The notes below the pieces were generated by a model, which was not told the DNA's origin, searched no databases, and saw nothing but the letters and a program-made list of their open reading frames with translations. Of a stretch of 44,443 nt of DNA, positions 14,285 to 44,443 are shown one piece after another. Source of the DNA: a virus; the UHGV virus genome UHGV-0035288. One strand, given 5' to 3'. Numbering within the stretch: position 1 is the stretch's first letter; the number at the start of each line of letters is the position of its first letter. The position numbers and the translations under genes are program-made.

Positions 14285-14349
14285 TATGCAGTCCCCCTTT
14301 TTATGCAGTTGCCGTCGGTCATTGTATCAGCGAATTTAAAACAAACCTT

Positions 14350-14664
14350 ATTCAGTCTCAGACGAGGGGGGCCATTGACCCCCGTCTAGTCTGAAAGACT
14401 GGGGTGCTGTCCCGCTGTCCCGATCGGCTAAAACCCGCGGCAGCACTGGAGGGGACGGGGTGCTGTCCCGATCTGTCCCGCCTCATTCTGTCCCGCTTTT
14501 TGTCCCGCTTACTTTATGCACTAAAACTGCATAGACATTCACATTTTGGGGGTGGGACAGATCGGGACAGCACCCCTGTCCCGCTTTTAATCTATGCAAT
14601 GTAAGTGGGTAAATATGCAGTTTTAGAGGTGCGGGACAAAACGGGACGTCCCGCCTGTCCCGCT
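14350..14664. repeat. iteron-rich element, copy 1 (hairpin plus at least 13 GTCCCG-core repeats in both orientations)
   Basis: TGTCCCG(C/A) at 14408, 14416, 14464, 14474, 14489, 14501, 14577, 14656; GTCCCGC at 14648; inverted GGGACA/CGGGACA at 14554, 14563, 14632, 14642. Conserved hairpin CAGTCTCAGACGAGGGGGG...CCCCCGTCTAGTCTGAAAGACTGG at 14353-14402. About 70% of this block is repeated at 31188-31366. Confidence 0.8.
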
Positions 14665-20218: not shown

Positions 20219-20258
20219 CGCTTGCAATCCTTGTATTGGTTGCAATATATTGGTTGCA
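20219..20258 (+). promoter_or_regulatory. promoter region with two tandem TTGGTTGCA motifs upstream of moron
   Basis: TTGGTTGCA at 20236-20244 and 20250-20258; TTGCAA/TATATT hexamers; followed by CACCAACAACGAGGAC leader shared with region 30971-31000. Confidence 0.5.
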
Positions 20259-28040: not shown

Positions 28041-28532
28041 TTATGCTGCGTTACGTCCGATCTTCTCGGCAACGTCCCACTGCTTACCATCAAATAGCGC
28101 CTGCCTGCCGATTGCTCGACGGACTAACCCCTTCAGCACTTCGCCACCTTGCTTGCGGAACTGCGGCAGAGTAGCCCGTACCTTCGCCCAGTCGCCCAGT
28201 CGCACCGCATCGTCAAAGTCGTTGGCAATGTTGTCCGGTACGATCGGACCCGGACCGGCATTGATTACCAGGTCCACCAGCGCGTCGAATTGCGCCTGGT
28301 TAATGCTCGGATGCGCGTATTTGTTCACCCAGTCCTCGGCATACGCCACATCGCGCTTGAGCAGTTCCAGCGCTTCAGCACGGGTAATGCTTCTAGGCGG
28401 ATTAGTGCCGGTGTGCCCATAACCCCAGGTGTACAGGCCGCGGGCCTGCTCTTTCTTGGTCGCGAAATACGGCACCGGGCTGAAAGCCTCCCATGCTGCC
28501 GTAAATCGTAGACCGTTATCACTGAATCGCAT
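28041..28532 (-). CDS. endolysin (lysozyme-like muramidase)
   Basis: 163 aa; E...GYGHT-type lysozyme motif (YTWGYGHTG); start overlaps holin gene; no signal peptide. Confidence 0.7.
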   Translation of the reverse strand: MRFSDNGLRFTAAWEAFSPVPYFATKKEQARGLYTWGYGHTGTNPPRSITRAEALELLKRDVAYAEDWVNKYAHPSINQAQFDALVDLVINAGPGPIVPDNIANDFDDAVRLGDWAKVRATLPQFRKQGGEVLKGLVRRAIGRQALFDGKQWDVAEKIGRNAA

Positions 28533-29051: not shown

Positions 29052-29085
29052 AAAAAAGTCCCAGTAAGTTTTATCTCACTGGGAC
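29052..29085 (-). terminator. terminator-like hairpin abutting lysis cassette start
   Basis: GTCCCAGT...ACTGGGAC stem (29058-29065 / 29078-29085) followed on minus strand by T6 that runs directly into the holin ATG. Confidence 0.5.
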
Positions 29086-29103
29086 TATATCACGCTTGCA
29101 TAA

Positions 29104-29391
29104 TTAATCGAAAATGGACCACTTGCCGACGCCTTTCCACTCCCACCCGGATGATCGGACGGCTTCGAACATCCGGCCCCCTATCATATCCCGATACCAC
29201 AGCCACCACATGCGCAACCTGGTCGGGTGCTCCTTGATTCCACGGCGCTTGTATATCCGGAACGTCATGCGGGTAATGCTGGCAGCTTCGACGGCGGGCC
29301 AAATCAGGAAGACCCACACCAACAGCGCCAGCACCATAGCAAAGAGTGCCGCACACCCCAACCCAAACCAATATATCAAATCGTGTAGCAT
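29104..29391 (-). CDS. small membrane protein
   Basis: 95 aa; hydrophobic helix (GLGCAALFAMVLALLVWVFLIW); preferred over the overlapping 114-aa frame. Confidence 0.45.
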   Translation of the reverse strand: MLHDLIYWFGLGCAALFAMVLALLVWVFLIWPAVEAASITRMTFRIYKRRGIKEHPTRLRMWWLWYRDMIGGRMFEAVRSSGWEWKGVGKWSIFD

Positions 29392-29516
29392 AGAATTGCC
29401 CCTTCCGGCTTGCCGATATGGCGCGCCCAGGCACGCGCCACGAAGTAATTGCGAAATACCCTACCGCCTACCTCAAAGCGGTTATGCTGAAGCATATCCC
29501 GGATCGTCGCGCTCAT
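29376..29516 (-). CDS. possible small ORF (46 aa)
   Basis: ATG 29516 overlaps upstream stop (ATGA); below ORF-track size cutoff; translated by hand. Confidence 0.3.
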   Translation of the reverse strand: MSATIRDMLQHNRFEVGGRVFRNYFVARAWARHIGKPEGAILCYTI

Positions 29517-30070
29517 TTCAGAATCACCGAGCGCGGGTCGATGGCCTTCATGCTGCCGTCTCGTTCAACCCGGATGAATCCAACGCCGTATTCCTGTGCA
29601 TAGCGCTGTGCATTCGTCACGGCATCAAAGCGATTGACGATTTCGTGTACGGTGCGGCCCATCTTCGCCTGCGCCTGGTGGGCGTCGTAGGTTGCGTAGG
29701 CTGGCTGTGACTTGCGGAACTCAACGCGCTCATGCGGCTGGCGGGCACGAAGGCAGTATTTTCGGCCCACTCGCTCGTAGTTGACCAGCCCGAAGTAAGT
29801 CATACCTGCTACGCCACCCTTGCGGGATTGCATACGCAGGCCATGAAGGCCGACATATTCAACGATCCAAATACTACCGTCGCGGGTATCACGCAGCACA
29901 TCGCCGCGCTCAATATCGTGGGTCAGTACATCAAAGTTTTCATACAGCCCGTCTTTCTTCGCCCACCAGACCCGACTGCCCGCCGCGTTTTGTAGGCGCA
30001 CGTATGCGTCCAGGGTCTGGATCGGCTTCAGAATACGACCATCGTGCTTACGGCGGAATAGTAATTTCAT
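29513..30070 (-). CDS. hypothetical protein
   Basis: 185 aa; ATG 30070 overlaps upstream stop (ATGA). Confidence 0.5.
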   Translation of the reverse strand: MKLLFRRKHDGRILKPIQTLDAYVRLQNAAGSRVWWAKKDGLYENFDVLTHDIERGDVLRDTRDGSIWIVEYVGLHGLRMQSRKGGVAGMTYFGLVNYERVGRKYCLRARQPHERVEFRKSQPAYATYDAHQAQAKMGRTVHEIVNRFDAVTNAQRYAQEYGVGFIRVERDGSMKAIDPRSVILK

Positions 30071-30219
30071 TGTTCTGTCTCCTCAATCTCGTCAACAGTC
30101 TTATAGTCGCCATCGCATACCGTAGCGATGCCGTCCATCTCATAATCAGCTATGCAGGCGTCTACTGAAATAAACTTCTGCGAGAATCCAGCCATTAGCG
30201 CTCTTTGCATTGGTGTCAT
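30067..30219 (-). CDS. small hypothetical protein (50 aa)
   Basis: GGAGACTGAGCAA then ATG 30219; MTPMQRALMAGFSQKF...; stop overlaps next start; below ORF-track cutoff. Confidence 0.4.
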   Translation of the reverse strand: MTPMQRALMAGFSQKFISVDACIADYEMDGIATVCDGDYKTVDEIEETEQ

Positions 30220-30368
30220 TTGCTCAGTCTCCGATAGTTATTGTTCAGGGTAAATTGGCTGATAGTGTGGCGGGATTTGGTTTTTGGGTGCATGAGCGTA
30301 ACGCTTCCGTTCCCTTCCCACACCACGAGATAAATCAATCCGGTGGCCTTGCTCTTGACTCGGATCAT
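30216..30368 (-). CDS. small hypothetical protein (50 aa)
   Basis: Identical 17-nt initiation region (GGAGACTGAGCAAATGA) as neighbour; MIRVKSKATGLIYLVVWEGNGSVTLMHPK...; ATGA overlaps on both sides. Confidence 0.4.
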   Translation of the reverse strand: MIRVKSKATGLIYLVVWEGNGSVTLMHPKTKSRHTISQFTLNNNYRRLSK

Positions 30369-30634
30369 TTGCTCAGTCTCCAGTGTTTGCCTACCCGCTC
30401 AACGGCGGGCTTCCGGCGTAATGTAATACGAATGCCAATTGGTTGCAAGGACGTTTTTATGGCTAACCCATGCTCCCTGGCGAACTGGCGCAAGTAGCGG
30501 GTCTGCGTTAATGGCTTCACATCGTCGCGATAGCACCAGAACACAGAATCGCCCTCATTCGCATTCTTAGCCCATATTCGTATGCAATGCAGTGGGATGC
30601 TCCACGAAAGCTGTTTAGCTCGTCTACGGCCCAT
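30365..30634 (-). CDS. hypothetical protein
   Basis: 89 aa; AAGGGG SD then ATG 30634. Confidence 0.5.
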   Translation of the reverse strand: MGRRRAKQLSWSIPLHCIRIWAKNANEGDSVFWCYRDDVKPLTQTRYLRQFAREHGLAIKTSLQPIGIRITLRRKPAVERVGKHWRLSK

Positions 30635-30643
30635 TCTGGCCCC

Positions 30644-30970
30644 TTATTTCGCAAGCTTGGCAAATAGTTCGCGCTGGGCTTTAATCCGGGCAACGTTTGT
30701 CACTGCCTTCTCGCCGATCCCGAAGCGATACGCCAGGCGCTCACGGGCAAATGCCAGCGCGTAGTCCTGGATAGCGTTCGCCAACGGCTGGATCTCTCCC
30801 ATAGTGTCGAAGCGGCGCTCAAGCATACAGGCGATGGCCTGCTGCGTGACGCGAACAACAGACCACGCTGCCGATAGTCTTTCGACCGCTTCCGCTCCTT
30901 CACCGGCGAACTCCGCCGCTTCTTGTGCCGCCGCCATAGCCATTGCGTAATTCCAGATAATCGCTTTCAT
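30644..30970 (-). CDS. hypothetical protein (first gene of leftward small-gene operon)
   Basis: 108 aa; GAGGA SD then ATG 30970; promoter motifs just upstream. Confidence 0.5.
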   Translation of the reverse strand: MKAIIWNYAMAMAAAQEAAEFAGEGAEAVERLSAAWSVVRVTQQAIACMLERRFDTMGEIQPLANAIQDYALAFARERLAYRFGIGEKAVTNVARIKAQRELFAKLAK

Positions 30971-30991
30971 CGTTCAGTCCTCATGTTGGTG

Positions 30992-31031
30992 TGCAACCAA
31001 TATAGCAGGGTGCTGGAGTGGGTGCAACCAA
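30992..31031 (-). promoter_or_regulatory. promoter region with two TTGGTTGCA motifs (minus orientation)
   Basis: TGCAACCAA on plus at 30992-31000 and 31023-31031; same leader (TTGGTTGCACACCAACA..GAGGAC) as upstream of 20281. Confidence 0.5.
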
Positions 31032-31182
31032 TATTAATCACGCGCATGAAAAAGTTGATCGCTATCTGCTGTAACTGCAAACTGCATTTTTCACCCACCA
31101 TTCTGCAACGCGCATTGGTTGCCTAGTTCATCGACGACCGCAATTCGCATCTTGTTGCCGTGCGTTATGCAATCCCGGATTT

Positions 31183-31370
31183 TATGCAGTCTCAGACGAG
31201 GGGGGTGCCAGACCCCCCGTCTAGTCTGAAAGACTGGGGTGCTGTCCCGCTGTCCCGCTCCTCGCCAGGCCGCGTCATCCGGGGCGGGACGGGGGTGCTG
31301 TCCCGCTTTGTCCCGCCCCTGGTCTGTCCCGCTTTTTGTCCCGCTTACTTTATGCAGTTTTATTGCATAA
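31183..31370. repeat. iteron-rich element, copy 2
   Basis: Same hairpin (31188-31237) and TGTCCCGC repeats (31243, 31251, 31299, 31309, 31325, 31337; inverted GCGGGAC at 31284) as 14353-14520; in 480-bp intergenic gap downstream of primase-helicase. Confidence 0.8.
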
Positions 31371-31450: not shown

Positions 31451-33715
31451 TTAATCTTTTAAATCGTCATCGGTCGCTAAAAGCGTGATAGGGATATCCG
31501 ATTTGATGACCAAATTAGACGACCCATAGATGGCCCCGGTGTGTGGATCGGTGTAAAAACCTATCACTCCTCGCTCCACCATATCGTCGATTGCCTTCGT
31601 CGAAGTGCCACCTTTTGCCAGCCCAGCCTGGCGGACAATTGCCGATTTACTGAATCCAGTATGGTCCGGGTTATCTTCCATCAGTTTTTCCAGTGCCGCA
31701 TAAAGCACTTTCTCTTTTTCGTTGCGCGGTCCGGCGGTGTTCTCTTCCTTAACCGCGGCCTTGCCTGCCGCCTTCGCCTGTTCAATAGCGAACGGTGCCA
31801 GGGCAACCGGTACGAGGTAGAGAGTCTCGTCGCGTGGCGTGGAGGCAATCGGCTTGACGTCCCAACCGGCAACCACGTCACCGAAGTCTGGCCCGGTGCT
31901 GGTGGACTGGTGCGCCTCGAACGCCTCAGATTTGCGGAGATCCACCTTCACCTTGCACTTGAGCAGGACGAAGCCGCGCGGCGCTTGCTTGATGCCGTTA
32001 CGTGACTTCTCATGATACAGGTTCAATTGTCCGGGCTGGTTGTCGTCCGGCTGTTCCAGGAAGAACGCAGAATCGACAGCACCATGCAGCGCGCCGGACC
32101 CGCGTGGCGTTCTGCTGCCGTTTGCACCTTTAGCCGGGTGGTGGATGACGCCCGCACTGCCACCTGTATTTTCCGCGATGGCCTTCAGCGCTTTGACCAC
32201 TTCACCCATATCGCTGGCGTTGTTCTCGTCGAACGGTTTAGCCTCGGCGGACCGCAACGCAACAGTCTGGTTGAGTGAGTCGAACGCCACCAGGCCAACC
32301 GGTTCGCCATTAGCGGTGCGGTTGATAAAGCTGATAACTTCGCGCAAGCCCGATTTGCTGGTGATATCCCAGCCGCGTGACTGCAGATCGATAATGTGCA
32401 GCTTGTCCAGGTCGTGCTCATATTTAATCTGCAATGCTTCTTTACGCTGGTTGGAGGCTTCGCCACCTTCCGCGTCGAAATAGAAGCAATGAGACTGGAC
32501 GACCTTCGCACCGCCAAACGGAATACCCGCGGCAACCGCGCCCATCTGGCCCAGCACGTAGAAAGACTTACCGATATTCGACTCACCCGCCATGTACCAG
32601 GTCGATTTAAAGTTAATCAACCCCTCGATAATCGGGTCGTGCTTACTGAACAGCGCAACCGGCTCGTTATCCAGATCCGCATCGGTGCACCCGCCATATT
32701 CTTCGCCGTCGCCAACCGCATCAACAATATGTTCATATAAGGATTCGACTTCCTCGTCGTCCAGCCCCGGAAGGATGGCGGCGATTTGCTTACGGGACAT
32801 ATTGTGTGGCTCGACGTTCAGGTGGTCCGGTATCCCGATGAGACGTAGCGCCAGGTGCTGGTGTCTATTTAGCTCCGAGCAACACTCGTTGCCGGTGTGC
32901 ATACACTTGAAACGGATCTCGCCATCCTTAACCATGATAGCCGTCGACCCTTCGCCGCTGTGCAGATGTTCGTTCGGGCACGGCACTTCATAGCCCCGCC
33001 CGGAAGATAACTCCTCGAATCCTGCCTGGAAGCACCAGTCCAGAATGCCGTCTGCCACTGCGTCGTCGCCCTGGGTCAGTTCGCGGCGAACTTCCTCCTT
33101 CTCCACGCCCAACTTATCCGCCAGGCGGAGCAGACGACGGACGCGGGCGCGCTTGCCATAGTGGCACTTAATAACAGACTGCTGGTGTGGCAGGTACATC
33201 AGGCGGTTCGTGTCTTTCGTGCAATCGTCGAAGTCCACATCTGACAGACCCAGTTGGTGTAATAGTGCATACTGGACGCGGCCCAGGTCTTCTGCCGGTA
33301 CAGGCTTGTCCGTGAGCACCAGGAAACGGGCGCAACGCGTGCCGCCTTTCAGCGGGTGGCGGTCGCCGGTTGTGGTGTGAAAGACGTGCTCCAGTCCCGC
33401 GTCGATGAACGCCTTACGGCAGCGGCGTAGGGTGCGGGTGTCGGTACGGTCTATATCGAAGAACAGGATCGAGCGGTCCACCGCACTGGTCTTACGACGC
33501 AATCCGTCACTGGTATATGCCACGATGCCGTCGGCCTTACGCTTGCGGCGCGCATACTCGGCTTTATCTTCCGTTTTGTTGATATGCACCGAGGAGATTT
33601 CTTTCGCATCATTGATAAATTCGAAAAACTCTTCGGTAGTCATCTGGAAGTTTTCCGCCCTGGCTTTTTCGCCTTTTTTAGCGGGTCTTGTTACAGCGAA
33701 TTTAATTAAGCTCAT
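31451..33715 (-). CDS. DNA primase-helicase (N-terminal primase-polymerase-like domain, C-terminal P-loop helicase)
   Basis: 754 aa; Walker A-like GESNIGKS in C-terminal half, acidic and Cys/His-containing N-terminal half; ATG 33715. Confidence 0.75.
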   Translation of the reverse strand: MSLIKFAVTRPAKKGEKARAENFQMTTEEFFEFINDAKEISSVHINKTEDKAEYARRKRKADGIVAYTSDGLRRKTSAVDRSILFFDIDRTDTRTLRRCRKAFIDAGLEHVFHTTTGDRHPLKGGTRCARFLVLTDKPVPAEDLGRVQYALLHQLGLSDVDFDDCTKDTNRLMYLPHQQSVIKCHYGKRARVRRLLRLADKLGVEKEEVRRELTQGDDAVADGILDWCFQAGFEELSSGRGYEVPCPNEHLHSGEGSTAIMVKDGEIRFKCMHTGNECCSELNRHQHLALRLIGIPDHLNVEPHNMSRKQIAAILPGLDDEEVESLYEHIVDAVGDGEEYGGCTDADLDNEPVALFSKHDPIIEGLINFKSTWYMAGESNIGKSFYVLGQMGAVAAGIPFGGAKVVQSHCFYFDAEGGEASNQRKEALQIKYEHDLDKLHIIDLQSRGWDITSKSGLREVISFINRTANGEPVGLVAFDSLNQTVALRSAEAKPFDENNASDMGEVVKALKAIAENTGGSAGVIHHPAKGANGSRTPRGSGALHGAVDSAFFLEQPDDNQPGQLNLYHEKSRNGIKQAPRGFVLLKCKVKVDLRKSEAFEAHQSTSTGPDFGDVVAGWDVKPIASTPRDETLYLVPVALAPFAIEQAKAAGKAAVKEENTAGPRNEKEKVLYAALEKLMEDNPDHTGFSKSAIVRQAGLAKGGTSTKAIDDMVERGVIGFYTDPHTGAIYGSSNLVIKSDIPITLLATDDDLKD

Positions 33716-33725
33716 TGCCGTGGCC

Positions 33726-34055
33726 TTACTTAGAAGTTTTATTATTGCGTACCCAGGAGCGCACTGTGCTCTGATTAATTCCGGTCAACTCGGCAATCAT
33801 CGCCCAGGATTTGCCCTCGGCGCGCAAACGGATAACCTGCTTTTTGTATTCTTCCATTTCTTCATTGTGCTTTTGCAGCTTGCTGGCTGCCGTACCGTTG
33901 AGCAATTCCAGCCTGGCGCGTAATTCTTTTTCTACACTGCGCAGGCGCTCTACCTCAAATAGCACCGCCCCAACGGCATCGGTATAAGCCCATGACCGGC
34001 TTGTTTCACTGCTAACAGTCTTCGTTAACATTTCGATTGCGTCGTCGATATTCAT
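33726..34055 (-). CDS. HTH DNA-binding regulator
   Basis: 109 aa; C-terminal helix-turn-helix (SWAMIAELTGINQSTVRSWV); GAGGG SD; first gene of leftward transcription from divergent control region. Confidence 0.55.
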   Translation of the reverse strand: MNIDDAIEMLTKTVSSETSRSWAYTDAVGAVLFEVERLRSVEKELRARLELLNGTAASKLQKHNEEMEEYKKQVIRLRAEGKSWAMIAELTGINQSTVRSWVRNNKTSK

Positions 34056-34458: not shown

Positions 34459-34974
34459 ATGTTTGAACAAATCGTAAACCTGATTACTCGCGGCGTAGTA
34501 GCACTGGAAACCATCGCTAAGCATTATGAAACCGTTGGCGCTGCCGTTGGTAAGCAGGAAGACAAGAAGCCGTCTAAGGTGAAAAAAGAAGTCGTAGAAG
34601 ATGACGACGATGAAACCGAAGACGAAAAACCGGCGAAAACCAAAAAATCCACAGCGAAAGGCAAGGCCAAAAAAGAAGTCGTAGAAGATGACGACGATGA
34701 AGCCGAAGACGAAAAACCAGCGAAGGGTAAAAAAGCTCCGGCGAAAGGCAAAGGCAAGAAAGATGCCGATCCGCTGGCGGAGATGCGCGACGAAATCAAA
34801 CAATATGCCGCTATTATCGCTGGTGGTGACGACGACGACGCGAACGACGAATTTGACGACCTGCTGGAATCGTTCGAGATCAAATCAATCGCCAAGCTGG
34901 AAGATGAAGACGTCGAAGACTTCCACAAAGATCTTAAAGAAATCGTCGAAACTTATTTCGAACTGGAAGATTAA
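34459..34974 (+). CDS. highly acidic tandem-repeat protein (first early gene)
   Basis: GGAGA SD then ATG 34459; 171 aa; duplicated block KEVVEDDDDE(T/A)EDEKPAK (DNA repeat at about 34584-34634 and 34668-34718); strongly acidic overall. Confidence 0.6.
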   Translation: MFEQIVNLITRGVVALETIAKHYETVGAAVGKQEDKKPSKVKKEVVEDDDDETEDEKPAKTKKSTAKGKAKKEVVEDDDDEAEDEKPAKGKKAPAKGKGKKDADPLAEMRDEIKQYAAIIAGGDDDDANDEFDDLLESFEIKSIAKLEDEDVEDFHKDLKEIVETYFELED

Positions 34975-35274: not shown

Positions 35275-35463
35275 ATGGCTATATTCTTTGTTTTATTTCG
35301 TTGCCGTATTACCGGCGATGAGCAACCGGAAATCGTTATGAATCAGAACTGGAATTGCTGCTGGACTCAAGCCAGAGGTTTGGCGGCTACCATGAACGAA
35401 GCCGCGAAGCGGGCTGGGGTTAAACATGAATATTACATTGCTCAGTTTTCAAGGGTGGAATAA
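35275..35463 (+). CDS. hypothetical small protein
   Basis: 62 aa; ATG directly after upstream stop; Cys/Trp-rich; weak. Confidence 0.35.
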   Translation: MAIFFVLFRCRITGDEQPEIVMNQNWNCCWTQARGLAATMNEAAKRAGVKHEYYIAQFSRVE

Positions 35464-36893
35464 TGGCAATTAAACCAAAACGTAAAACGCAATCCGGTAG
35501 CAATACGGAACACTCATTACTTGGGCCATCCGGTGCTAAAAAGTGGATGGGTTGCCCTGCTGCCCTGGTGGTGGAAAAAGATATCCCGAACGAATCCGGG
35601 CAAGCCGCGATTAACGGTACGAGTATGCACACCGTATCTGAAGTGGTGCTAAACCGCATTATCGCCGGGGAGAAGCTGATAACCGCGAAGACGTATAAAG
35701 GGTGCTACGTCGAGAACGAAGGCAAGGGGCCGGTAAAGGCACACCCGAAAGCACCGAAAGGCGGCGTACTGGTCAACGACGACATGGTGAAACAGTGCGA
35801 CGCGTACATCGACCACTGGCGACCGCTCCTCGAAGTGGCGGAGTTTGTTCAGCTTGAGATGCGCGCCGATCTGACCCGCGTCCTTCACTCAGGCTACGAG
35901 ATCGACGGCAACAGGATTAAAACGTTCGGTACTGCCGATATGGTCATGGTCATGAAAAAGACCGATGGGACGTACATGCTGATTGTTGGCGACCTGAAGA
36001 CCGGGCGGCATAAGGTCGAGGCGAAAGAGAACAAACAGCTTATGTTGTACGCGCTCGGCCTGCTGCGCAAGCTGCAAACTATGTACGACATTACGACCGT
36101 GCGCCTGGTTATCTTCCAGCCGTATTGCGGTGGGGCGTCGGAGTGGGATATTTCGGTAGAAGCTCTGGAGATATTCGCGAAGTTTGCATCCAAGCGCGCT
36201 ATTGCCGCACTGGAGGCGTATTCCCGAGGCAAGAAGGGGCTTACCCGTGCCGACTTCCGCCCCAGCGTTGATGCGTGCCAGTGGTGCCGATTTGCGGATC
36301 AGTGTAGTGCCCGCGCTAAGGCCGCAATCGACACGATGACACCCCCAACGGCAACCGACGAAGACCTGGGCGACGACGTGAGTATTGCGACAGAGGAAGA
36401 ATGCGCCAACCATGACCGCAATATGGCCCGCGAAGCCAGGAAGGCGGCACGACGTGCGAAGCGCGGTAAGAAAGAAGCGGCCCCCGGTGCTATGAGCGCG
36501 GCGGAACTGCGCAAGGCTTATGAAGGCCTGGACGCAATGCGCCAGCACATCAAGGCTATCGAGTCCGCGGTATTCAAGGCGGTCATGGCGGGCGAAGGCG
36601 AATCGCTGGGCCTTAAGATGGTTGCCGGTAAGGAAGGGATCCGTAAGTGGGCGGACGAGAGCGAAGTGATTGAAATCTTCACGAAGGCCCGGATCAAGCG
36701 CGATGTGATGTACAAAGAAACATTGCTCAGCCCGACAGATGCCGAGAAGGTATTGAAGGACGAAAAACCAAAAGTGTGGGCGAAGCTGTGTGATAAAATC
36801 ACGCGCGCACCTGCCAAACCGGTGTTAGCTCCAATCGACGACCCGCGCCCTGCGTGGTCGGAAGCTACTGACGAGGACTTAAGCAATGAATAA
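35463..36893 (+). CDS. PD-(D/E)XK-type nuclease (DUF2800-like, Cas4/RecB-like)
   Basis: 476 aa; N-terminus HSLLGPSGAKKWMGCPA is the characteristic start of this family; C-terminal Cys cluster (CQWCRFADQC); TAATG coupling to upstream gene. Confidence 0.65.
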   Translation: MAIKPKRKTQSGSNTEHSLLGPSGAKKWMGCPAALVVEKDIPNESGQAAINGTSMHTVSEVVLNRIIAGEKLITAKTYKGCYVENEGKGPVKAHPKAPKGGVLVNDDMVKQCDAYIDHWRPLLEVAEFVQLEMRADLTRVLHSGYEIDGNRIKTFGTADMVMVMKKTDGTYMLIVGDLKTGRHKVEAKENKQLMLYALGLLRKLQTMYDITTVRLVIFQPYCGGASEWDISVEALEIFAKFASKRAIAALEAYSRGKKGLTRADFRPSVDACQWCRFADQCSARAKAAIDTMTPPTATDEDLGDDVSIATEEECANHDRNMAREARKAARRAKRGKKEAAPGAMSAAELRKAYEGLDAMRQHIKAIESAVFKAVMAGEGESLGLKMVAGKEGIRKWADESEVIEIFTKARIKRDVMYKETLLSPTDAEKVLKDEKPKVWAKLCDKITRAPAKPVLAPIDDPRPAWSEATDEDLSNE

Positions 36894-37153: not shown

Positions 37154-37218
37154 AGCAACCAAGCCGAACGGGGTGGCTTCCAATAACCCCGATACATGTG
37201 AAAATGAGGAATTGGAAA

Positions 37219-37998
37219 ATGGCTAAAGTCAACCTGAAAAATGTGCGTGTATGTTTCCTTAAAATTTGGGAACGTGATACCCCTAAACAGGATGGACAAA
37301 AACCGGCATACCGCGCCGTGATTCTTCTTGATAAAGAAGATCCGCAGGTGGACAAAGTGGAAGCGGCAGCGCGCGCAGTGCTCACCGACAAGCTGAAATC
37401 CGAGAAGAATGCCGATAAGTGGATGGACCGCCACTACGCCCAGGATTCTAAGGAATGCGCAGTCCGCGACGGTGACGAGCGCGACGAAGTAACCGAAGAA
37501 TTCGAAGGCATGTTGTACATCAACGCTAAATCGTTCAAACAGCCGAACATCCAAACGTCACTGGGCGAGAAGCAGACCGAGCAAGGTCTGACCGTAGAAG
37601 GCGACGAGATCGAAGGCCAGGAAATCTATTCCGGTTGTTATTGCAACGTGTCACTGGATATTTGGGCGTGGAACAACACCAACGGTAAGGGACTCGGTGC
37701 TGGTCTTTTGGGTCTGCGATTCCGCGTCGACGGCGAAGCCTTCGGCGGTGGCGGGTCTTCTTGCTCGGACGAGGACCTGGGCGACGATGACGAAGATGAA
37801 AGCCCGCGCAAGTCCAAAAAGTCAAAACGTCGTGATGACGATGATGAAGACGACAAGCCGCGCAAGTCCAAAAAGTCCAAGCGCCGCGATGACGACGACG
37901 ATGATGAAACACCTCGCAAACGTCGTAAGCCACGCGATGACGAAGATGAGGACGACGACGACGAAGACAAAGCACCGCGTAAACGTCGCCGCCGTTAA
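37219..37998 (+). CDS. single-stranded DNA-binding protein (DUF2815-like) with Lys/Arg-Asp/Glu repeat tail
   Basis: Track start is GTG 37198; ATG 37219 has GAGGA SD. N-terminus MAKVNLKNVRV typical of this SSB family; C-terminal 90 aa are alternating basic/acidic repeats (PRKSKKSKRRDDDDEDD x2, ending KRRRR). Confidence 0.6.
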   Translation: MAKVNLKNVRVCFLKIWERDTPKQDGQKPAYRAVILLDKEDPQVDKVEAAARAVLTDKLKSEKNADKWMDRHYAQDSKECAVRDGDERDEVTEEFEGMLYINAKSFKQPNIQTSLGEKQTEQGLTVEGDEIEGQEIYSGCYCNVSLDIWAWNNTNGKGLGAGLLGLRFRVDGEAFGGGGSSCSDEDLGDDDEDESPRKSKKSKRRDDDDEDDKPRKSKKSKRRDDDDDDETPRKRRKPRDDEDEDDDDEDKAPRKRRRR

Positions 37999-43715: not shown

Positions 43716-43744
43716 TTGCATAATCATATTGGTTGCATTATATT
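43716..43744 (+). promoter_or_regulatory. sigma70-like promoter (TTGCAT-17-TATATT) built from two tandem ATTGGTTGCA motifs
   Basis: Motifs at 43712-43720 and 43729-43737; -35 at 43716-43721, -10 at 43739-43744. Confidence 0.55.
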
Positions 43745-44035: not shown

Positions 44036-44443
44036 ATGAAAATTTTACAAGAAGAGAAGAATTACTGGGCAGCGCAATGCCTCGAAGCCCGCGAACAGGC
44101 CGAACGTGCGAACGCGTTGGCGGGCACCAACCAGGCGCTATATGAAGGAGAGAAGAAAGCGCGCCAGGAGCTAGCGGAGCGCTTCGGACTGCTATTCGAA
44201 TTGATGGGGATTATGCAGCGCACCGGATACACCACCAGCGTTGCACTAAACCGCATCACTGCCGAAGGGCTGCGCGATCATTGCAAACGTGCGGAGGAGT
44301 ACGTTCGTCCGAAGGGTCGCCAGTCTAAGATCGACAGGAAAGACCTTGTACTCATGGCGTGGCGCAACCCTACAAACGGCAGCATATACCCGAACGCGCG
44401 CCCGCTTAGTGCCGAGGAATCAAAGCGCGTGCAACGAATCATC
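44036..44443 (+). CDS. hypothetical protein, 3'-truncated at window end
   Basis: GGAGA SD then ATG 44036; open for 136 codons to the last base of the window with no stop. Confidence 0.45.
   Translation, partial: MKILQEEKNYWAAQCLEAREQAERANALAGTNQALYEGEKKARQELAERFGLLFELMGIMQRTGYTTSVALNRITAEGLRDHCKRAEEYVRPKGRQSKIDRKDLVLMAWRNPTNGSIYPNARPLSAEESKRVQRII

Follow-up and report, generated by a model that had tools for sequence, protein, structure and literature searches.

The virus genome UHGV-0035288, analysed here as a single stretch of 44,443 nucleotides (the window), carries between its replication and lysis genes a leftward operon of seven short genes, g1 to g7 (positions 29104–30970). We consider it likely that this is an operon of Dhillonvirus phages with a slot for accessory gene cassettes between g2 and g5, in which a short repeated linker bounds each cassette and would act both as a joint for coupled translation and as microhomology for recombination. 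An earlier note, made from the sequence alone, had described an identical 17-nt start region in front of two adjacent 50-aa genes of this operon, g3 and g4. The identity is exact, but comparison with relatives changes its meaning: instead of being a feature of two genes, the repeat is the universal, genus-wide linker of a variable slot. The slot is empty in some phages and holds one to three tiny, unrelated genes in others, and each cassette ends in a 16–17-nt linker composed of a GGAG Shine-Dalgarno sequence, a fixed spacer and ATGA.

The linker and the variable slot

The 17-mer GGAGACTGAGCAAATGA (coding strand; TCATTTGCTCAGTCTCC on the plus strand) occurs exactly at 30365–30381 and 30216–30232. 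When up to three mismatches are allowed, the window still contains two matches versus 0.08 expected, and none of 100 shuffled sequences reaches two. In the first copy (30365–30381, minus strand), GGAG is followed by a 9-nt spacer and by the ATG of g3, which overlaps the TGA of g2; this copy keeps its position in almost all relatives, irrespective of the gene that follows. The second copy (30216–30232, minus strand), identical to the first, covers the 3′ end of g3 together with the Shine-Dalgarno sequence and ATG of g4. A variant, GGAGACAGAACAATGA, is found at the g4/g5 junction (30067–30082, minus strand). It has one A fewer, and its GGAGAC block is therefore in another reading frame. Several relatives contain an intermediate, GGAGACTGAGCAATGA, set apart from the 17-mer by the deletion of a single A. 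Read as (T/C)GG AGA CTG AGC AAA TGA in g2 and g3, the linker gives proteins that end in (W/R)RLSK, and in g4 it is read GAG GAG AC(A/T) GA(A/G) CAA TGA, giving EETEQ.

The same block recurs at the ends of unrelated genes. In almost all phages g2 ends in GGAGACTGAGCAAATG(A/T). Among the cassettes, g3 ends in the identical 17-mer, g4 in GGAGAC(A/T)GA(A/G)CAATGA, and the cassette of locus L014 in GGAGACTGCGCAAATGA, whereas distant homologues of g3 (about 50–56% identity) end in co-diverged linkers, e.g. GGAGATTGACAGAATGA. Diversity at third codon positions is about 0.01 in the last 12 codons of g2, versus 0.197 for g2 overall, and g5 is almost invariant over its first 20 nt. Thus, the insertion point is surrounded by a frozen block of about 36 nt on the g2 side and 20 nt on the g5 side. 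As judged from these alignments, the linker is conserved at the nucleotide rather than the protein level. Junction RNA shows no folding beyond that of shuffled sequence (z from -1.0 to +1.2), and an Rfam scan returned nothing relevant, its sole match being a sub-threshold NsiR1 hit that reflects the terminator hairpin of the operon. The 17-mer is also devoid of promoter hexamers, and a generic scan found no promoter at the junctions.

Variability of the slot was assessed in 22 distinct operon versions (34 loci) from GenBank and IMG/VR. Five genes, g1, g2, g5, g6 and g7, are present in all 22 versions. In tblastn searches of about 158 Dhillonvirus GenBank records, g2 was found in 157 and g5 in 156; g4 occurs in 107 records and g3 in 25. 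The earlier note had proposed to compare the operon across related phages for gene gain and loss; judging by these distributions, the five genes are genus-core and only g3 and g4 are variable. The distance between the g2 stop and the g5 start ranges from 0 to 459 nt. The slot is empty in L011 and L012, contains g4 alone in most phages and g3 alone in YD-2008.s and 011D5, and holds both g3 and g4 in this window, SM_A2 and Oekolampad. More unusual contents are g3, a 62-aa gene (gB62) and g4 in L024, a 63-aa gene followed by g4 in L006, and a 114-aa paralogue of the g5 N domain in L014 (1268–1609). The linker, or a variant within three changes of it, stands at each slot boundary across the versions, and in the empty-slot phages L011 and L012 a single linker joins g2 straight to g5. 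In the window, SM_A2, YD-2008.s, Oekolampad and BF9, g3 has an exact 17-mer on either side.

Gains and losses within the slot are precise to the nucleotide. In a four-way alignment, SM_S22 corresponds to the window minus exactly 149 bp (g3 and one linker), and YD-2008.s to the window minus exactly 149 bp (g4 and its linker), with the shared parts being 97–98% identical. Because of these precise indels, the arrangement in the window can be read as that of a g3-type and a g4-type phage joined at the linker. Since the two stacked cassettes each end in a linker, the ‘initiation region’ appears duplicated.

The cassettes themselves are heterogeneous. The basic g3 and the acidic g4 proteins are unrelated (phmmer E = 0.7), and a relationship between the g3 family and g5 was rejected in a profile comparison (probability 1.9%). 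gB62 resembles the centre of g2 at E = 0.22 only, which is a hint and no more. The 114-aa cassette of L014 shares about 33% identity with the N-terminal domain of g5 and ends in WRLRK within the linker, which suggests that cassettes can arise through unequal exchange at the linker and divergence of flanking core genes. A different rearrangement is seen in BF9 (L045 2750–3061), where an in-frame fusion joins g4 to the C-terminal domain of g5 in a 103-aa product and the g5 N domain is deleted; by its sequence, this fusion represents a natural domain deletion of an otherwise genus-core gene.

Genes and transcription signals of the operon

Sequence comparison places the window in Dhillonvirus, a genus of HK578/SO-1-like virulent E. 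coli siphoviruses with genomes of 43–46 kb. A 2.1-kb region covering the operon is matched by 158 phage records at 80–95% identity, essentially all of them Dhillonvirus, and its closest relative is that of Escherichia phage SM_A2 (93.6% identity). On this evidence, the region corresponds to the conserved ‘gp49–gp53’ small-gene operon of the genus: GenBank relatives contain the same chain of small genes as ‘hypothetical proteins’, labelled gp49–gp53 in several records. The operon is preceded by the primase-helicase gene (31451–33715, minus strand), from which it is separated by a non-coding block of 350 bp, and is followed by two holin genes (29051–28761 and 28764–28519, minus strand) and the endolysin gene (28041–28532, minus strand). 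The order primase-helicase, small-gene chain, holin II, holin I and endolysin is kept in the 22 distinct relatives, across which the protein identity of core genes is 75–100%. Its description as a tightly packed leftward operon between replication and lysis genes therefore agrees with the earlier note. Gene by gene, identity among relatives is strongly mosaic. Between the window and SM_A2, it amounts to 65% for g1, 95% for g2, 100% for both g3 and g4, 91% for g5 and 81% for g7.

All seven open reading frames (ORFs) lie on the minus strand and have the positions and lengths reported previously. The first two are g1 (30644–30970, 108 aa) and g2 (30365–30634, 89 aa; PHROG 12533), a basic protein ending in WRLSK, whose gene forms the left flank of the slot. 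They are followed by the accessory cassettes g3 (30216–30368, 50 aa), which encodes a basic protein ending in RRLSK and has no PHROG or Pfam match, and g4 (30067–30219, 50 aa; PHROG 15977), which encodes an acidic protein ending in EETEQ. The right flank of the slot is g5 (29513–30070, 185 aa), after which come g6 (29376–29516, 46 aa; PHROG 13628) and g7 (29104–29391, 95 aa; PHROG 2531). Every junction is either a stop/start overlap or a gap of ≤10 nt, and a GGAG, GAGGA or AAGGGG Shine-Dalgarno sequence precedes each start. The claim that the genes are chained by ATGA or other overlaps holds for five junctions, namely g2/g3, g3/g4, g4/g5 and g5/g6, with ATGA, and g6/g7, with an overlap of 16 nt. 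It does not hold for g1/g2, where a 9-nt spacer follows the TAA. Some relatives contain additional small genes: a 59-aa gene lies between the promoter and g1 in about 8 of 22 operon versions, and a 33-aa transmembrane peptide, absent from the window, is encoded between g6 and g7 in some relatives.

Coding status was evaluated by pairwise Nei-Gojobori estimates of the ratio of nonsynonymous to synonymous differences (pN/pS) on ungapped orthologues. The values are 0.24 for g1, 0.21 for g2, 0.21 for g3, 0.29 for g4, 0.30 for g5, about 0.10 (0.095) for g6 and 0.24 for g7, compared with 0.07–0.14 for the holins and 0.04 for the primase-helicase. By these estimates, all seven ORFs are under purifying selection, and they are syntenic in relatives; g6 is the most constrained of the small ORFs. 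Six of the seven genes belong to PHROG families, all of unknown function, with g3 having none. The three ORFs shorter than 60 aa (g3, g4 and g6) carry coding sequence (CDS) annotations in GenBank relatives and, given their pN/pS values, qualify as real genes by comparative criteria, as had been proposed.

None of the proteins has a recognisable function, again in line with the earlier note. The eight ORFs considered (the seven genes and g0, an annotated ORF over the promoter discussed below) have no Pfam, NCBIfam or PADLOC match, and sequence searches of the PDB with g5, g1 and g2 gave no match. Searches of large databases with g5, g7 and g1 retrieved Dhillonvirus relatives and fragments only, except for tblastn of g7, which detected homologues at 35–43% identity in Jerseyvirus and Kagunavirus phages (469 records). 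In phage templet, the g7 homologue lies between the lysis genes and terS, in a nin-like cluster where it adjoins a NinH-like gene. The g7 protein begins with a transmembrane helix, behind which lies a basic domain rich in Trp. For g1, the structural model is a confident four-helix bundle (predicted local distance difference test score, pLDDT, 95), and fold searches with it returned only generic helical proteins and Dhillonvirus orthologues. Residues from about 17 to 60 of g1 are hypervariable and rich in indels, whereas the N- and C-terminal helices are strongly conserved; several allelic types share only about 50% identity. Such a pattern in the centre of the protein is what would be expected of a surface under diversifying selection. 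The g5 protein is predicted to have two domains, a beta-rich N domain and a C domain made of a long helix and a hairpin, in a model of low confidence (pLDDT 63). A literature search for expression or phenotypes of the operon genes found none (PMC10673088, PMC8594841, PMC11564622, PMC11846954, PMC13017515, bioRxiv 10.1101/2022.08.27.505566). The earlier note had also considered that the operon might consist of invariant core genes with assigned roles. This applies in part, since five of the seven genes are core; they are without assigned roles.

The promoter suspected at about 31000 is of the sigma70 type (30999–31027, minus strand), with TTGCAC as the -35 hexamer (31027–31022), a 17-nt spacer and TATATT as the -10 hexamer (31004–30999). 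In an alignment of 15 relatives, both hexamers are conserved, as TTGCA(C/T) and TA(T/G)ATT, around a spacer of constant length and variable sequence. A generic scan overlooked this promoter because its -35 hexamer matches at 3 of 6 positions only. Transcription would start near 30992, giving a predicted g1 leader of about 22 nt that carries the GAGGA Shine-Dalgarno sequence. The window contains three matches to TTGCAN-N17/18-TAKATT versus 0.06 expected, at 30999–31027 (minus strand), 20222–20251 (plus strand) and 43716–43744 (plus strand), each time upstream of a correctly oriented gene. The operon promoter and the 20222 site have a longer box in common, TATATTGGTTGCACACCAACA-GAGGAC. The 43716 site precedes a block that contains a homologue of SM_S22 CDS0035 (44036–44443, plus strand, cut by the end of the window; 83% over 136 aa). 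The latter is taken to be ORF35 (anti-Tmn) of PMC11846954, the two having been equated by number and matching architecture.

An octamer, TTGGTTGC, forms part of these promoters at the three places. It occurs 18 times in the window versus 1.8 expected, mostly in intergenic pairs (for example at 1191/1203, 20236/20250, 30993/31024, 31396/31431, 37139/37155 and 43712/43729), and 1191–1210 is a perfect palindrome, TGCAACCAA-N4-TTGGTTGCA. Away from the promoters, the octamer may be an operator for some regulator.

Overlying the operon promoter is a 44-aa ORF, g0 (30967–31101, minus strand; PHROG 23498), which many Dhillonvirus records in GenBank list as a CDS. Divergence is low in this ORF and its pN/pS is 0.64; its conservation is block-like and not 3-periodic. 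Moreover, the ATG is lost in 2 of 15 relatives (L004 and L008), and 1 of 15 (L012) has an in-frame stop. The ORF is probably non-coding, with a substitution pattern resembling that of a non-coding regulatory region. This result corrects the annotation of a probable non-gene that has been propagated through GenBank records.

At the other end of the operon, the hairpin noticed at about 29052–29085 has the form of an intrinsic terminator (29052–29086, minus strand), with a 12-bp stem (29086–29057) followed by a T-run (29056–29052) and a folding energy of -24.8 kcal/mol (z = -6.3). Termination presumably occurs at this hairpin. The region is almost invariant in the 22 relatives, far above the conservation of the flanking coding sequence, and the ATG of the holin gene (29051) directly abuts the T-run. 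A further element overlaps the 5′ arm of the terminator: TGATATAGT at 29084–29092 matches the extended -10 consensus (TATAGT, 29089–29084) and is invariant in the 22 relatives. A transcript beginning about 7 nt past TGATATAGT would lack the 5′ arm of the terminator and run into the holin gene, the Shine-Dalgarno sequence of which would fall within the 3′ arm. The segment 29051–29092 may be an overlapping terminator and lysis-promoter switch.

Mechanism and alternative explanations

In the mechanism that we propose, the promoter at 31027–30999 would give rise to a polycistronic transcript of about 1.9 kb, terminated at 29086–29052; transcription would presumably be early. The seven proteins would be translated as a chain via ATGA or short overlaps, with presumed translational coupling. 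In the linker, GGAG sits 9 nt (8 nt in the shorter variant) before an ATG that overlaps the upstream TGA, and would give both the incoming cassette and the next gene a ready ribosome-binding site and stop/start coupling. A cassette with one copy of the linker at its 3′ end would keep the chain of coupled translation intact. The linker would also be the sole homology available for juxtaposing two unrelated cassettes or for excising one precisely. Together with the frozen stretches of about 36 nt at the end of g2 and about 20 nt at the start of g5, it would provide the short identity for recombination between co-infecting relatives or within one genome, by which cassettes could be added or removed in register. 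Likely agents are the phage's own Gp2.5-like single-strand annealing protein (37198–37998) and exonuclease (35463–36893). Short direct repeats undergo deletions and exchanges that are promoted by annealing and exonuclease systems of the T7 type. We infer the role of the linker as a recombination substrate from the precise 149-bp indels.

Several observations weigh against this explanation. The minimum for Red-beta recombination has been quoted as roughly 30 bp (PMC3945230). The 17 bp of the linker fall short of this value, and linker-mediated events are therefore probably rare and visible only over evolutionary time. Breakpoints were expected to coincide with linkers, which is not so for the window and SM_A2: these share an identical block of 515 bp (30009–30523) that ends inside g2 and g5. 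Whole slot contents therefore also move by ordinary recombination in the flanks, without the 17-mer. Related strings of Shine-Dalgarno sequence, spacer and ATGA are found in the g1 leader (GAGGACTGAACGATGA) and in front of the 20281 gene (GAGGACACAAAAATGA), and so selection for a favoured initiation region would contribute too. Finally, the operon proteins went undetected in the one Dhillonvirus proteomics study found, which was of low sensitivity (PMC10673088) and detected only four phage proteins in infected cells.

An idea that concerns the function of the cassettes, and is compatible with the linker mechanism, is that the products of the operon, or at least those of g3 and g4, serve in host takeover or anti-defence. 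In the earlier note, this had been drawn from the position of the operon only. The patchy distribution of g3 and g4 (25 and 107 of about 158 records), the hypervariable centre of g1 between its conserved ends, and the fact that the promoter type of the operon also drives the block with the putative anti-Tmn homologue are consistent with such a role. Against it, no homology to known anti-defence or defence-related families was found, five of the seven genes are genus-core, and the g5 model is of low confidence (pLDDT 63), SH3-like barrels being ubiquitous in any case. In addition, all published Dhillonvirus determinants map outside this operon: anti-Tmn and nmad5 (PMC11846954), Ksap1 (PMC11564622), the portal (PMC13017515), and SSB and DNA polymerase (bioRxiv 10.1101/2022.08.27.505566). 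Anti-Tmn is the only Dhillonvirus gene whose anti-defence role has been demonstrated by experiment. The gene for Ksap1, a trigger of Avs2, has a methyltransferase gene on one side and a phosphatase gene on the other (PMC11564622), and none of g1–g7 is similar to anti-Tmn or Ksap1. On balance, we regard an anti-defence role as possible and somewhat unlikely.

A second alternative bears on the linker itself, which might be conserved solely as an optimal sequence for initiation and coupling, with cassettes being exchanged by ordinary homologous recombination in the flanks. The breakpoints inside g2 and g5, the similar strings at two first-gene leaders elsewhere, and the unstructured junction RNA (z about 0), which suits initiation, are all in its favour. 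However, selection on a Shine-Dalgarno sequence requires neither identity of the 9-nt spacer nor synonymous sites frozen over 36 nt. The indels of g3 and g4 start and stop exactly at the repeats, stacks such as g3 with g4 or g3 with gB62 and g4 are not buildable by recombination in the flanks alone, and linkers co-diverge with their cassettes in distant relatives. We therefore find it rather doubtful that initiation accounts for the linker on its own.

Our preferred explanation, coupling joint and recombination microhomology in one, can also be taken further. The g2/g5 junction, with its genus-frozen block of about 55 nt, might be a dedicated ‘cassette dock’, at which the 17-nt linker lets virulent phages plug in, stack and discard tiny genes without a site-specific recombinase, the cassettes (g3, g4, gB62 and the paralogue of the g5 N domain) being fast-turnover counter-defence or host-range factors. 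This is a speculative and improbable extension; if true, a small lytic coliphage would possess an integron-like system for accessory genes that works without a recombinase.

Much less probable is that the 17-mer is an operator through which a T4 RegA-like translational repressor or a small RNA co-regulates the genes of the slot. Its conservation at the nucleotide level across reading frames and the location of the sites exactly on initiation regions would agree with this. No candidate regulator was identified, neither an Rfam family nor an RNA structure was found, and the motif occurs nowhere else in the genome, hence the regulon would consist of one slot; the repeat-bounded indels would also be left unexplained. 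Lastly, an origin of g3 and g4 as tandem duplicates with the repeated start region as a remnant, to which their equal length (50 aa), adjacency and identical upstream 17 nt might point, was rejected on the phmmer value of E = 0.7 and can practically be discounted: the two proteins are unrelated, so that the repeat does not stem from a gene duplication, the identity stops abruptly at both ends of the 17-mer, and each gene is found alone in other phages.

Genomic surroundings and relation to known systems

The window also contains two copies of a non-coding block of about 190 bp, at 31182–31369 and 14348–14533, which have the same orientation, lie 16.8 kb apart and are 82–89% identical. The first separates the primase-helicase gene from the operon, and the second is located upstream of the tape-measure gene. 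Each consists of an array of GCGGGACA iteron-like repeats and a GC-rich hairpin; GCGGGACA occurs 16 times in the window versus 2.1 expected, and 13 of the 16 fall into the two block clusters. GenBank relatives annotate spurious ORFs over this block, e.g. SM_S22 CDS0055. The block could be a replication origin or a protein-binding array. Tandem in-frame repeats at 34576–34749 (87 nt, two copies, 86% identical) and 37783–37890 (54 nt, two copies, 83% identical) encode acidic and basic low-complexity stretches.

The operon resembles the lambdoid nin region (ren and ninA–ninI, before Q and the lysis genes) in several respects. Both lie between replication and lysis modules and are made of tightly packed, small, mostly uncharacterised genes with ATGA overlaps, and in both the content varies between relatives. 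In the nin region, the small non-essential genes that separate replication from late functions are linked by ‘numerous ATGA sequence motifs’ (PMC8022706); similarly, g3 and g4 are naturally absent from many relatives. The g7 homologue of a Jerseyvirus adjoining a NinH-like gene is a further likeness. Nevertheless, none of g1–g7 matches a nin family (NinB, NinG, NinH or others) in Pfam, NCBIfam or PHROG. Unlike the lambdoid case, the phage here is virulent, and variation is confined to defined slots bounded by one specific linker rather than by generic ATGA.

A second comparison is with the PeSL cassettes of T4-type phages, in which repeated regulatory sequences flank non-essential ORFans, and recombination between the repeats gives rise to insertions, deletions and replacements among close relatives (Arbiol et al. 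2010, PMC2839356; PMC4122927). In both systems, variable ORFan genes stand between short repeats, which also delimit the indels seen between relatives. A PeSL, however, combines an early promoter with a terminator stem-loop and is much longer, whereas the Dhillonvirus linker is a 16–17-nt translational joint within one mRNA, without promoter or hairpin.

Short identical sequences on both sides of an inserted gene, located at gene boundaries, are also the hallmark of the boundary sequences of Susskind and Botstein. In mycobacteriophage Island3, the last 18 codons of gp68 repeat those of the upstream gene, which has been read as recombination at a short boundary sequence (PMC3029335). As in Dhillonvirus, the inserted gene and the gene upstream of it share their 3′-terminal nucleotide sequence, and Island3 gene 68 is, by this analogy, the nearest single precedent. 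The Island3 repeat is about 50 bp long and a single case, whereas the Dhillonvirus linker measures 17 bp, carries the ribosome-binding site of the following gene and is found again at each cassette boundary throughout the genus.

As for other small genus-restricted proteins of the same phages, anti-Tmn and Ksap1 have allele-specific effects on bacterial immunity (PMC11846954, PMC11564622); they are encoded elsewhere and are dissimilar to g1–g7. With regard to integrons, there is no integrase in or near the operon, and the linker has no attC-like secondary structure. The only gene labelled ‘transposase’ in PHROG is a 109-aa gene at 33726–34055.

In kind, the variation described here is ordinary phage mosaicism, already known, with a tidy mechanistic twist and unusually clean in this case; the analysis reveals no new biochemical function. 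What appears distinctive from the sequence comparisons is the combination of one slot, one linker that bears a ribosome-binding site and at least five unrelated cassettes across a whole genus. Among the accessory genes of the operon, g3 and g4 are the ones most worth screening. Furthermore, the slot is a natural, expression-ready insertion site for the engineering of Dhillonvirus, and engineering for therapy is under way (PMC11846954). The relative importance of boundary sequences and illegitimate recombination has so far been argued mostly from isolated cases. Dhillonvirus would provide a genus-wide example of how short conserved joints let phages swap very small genes in register.

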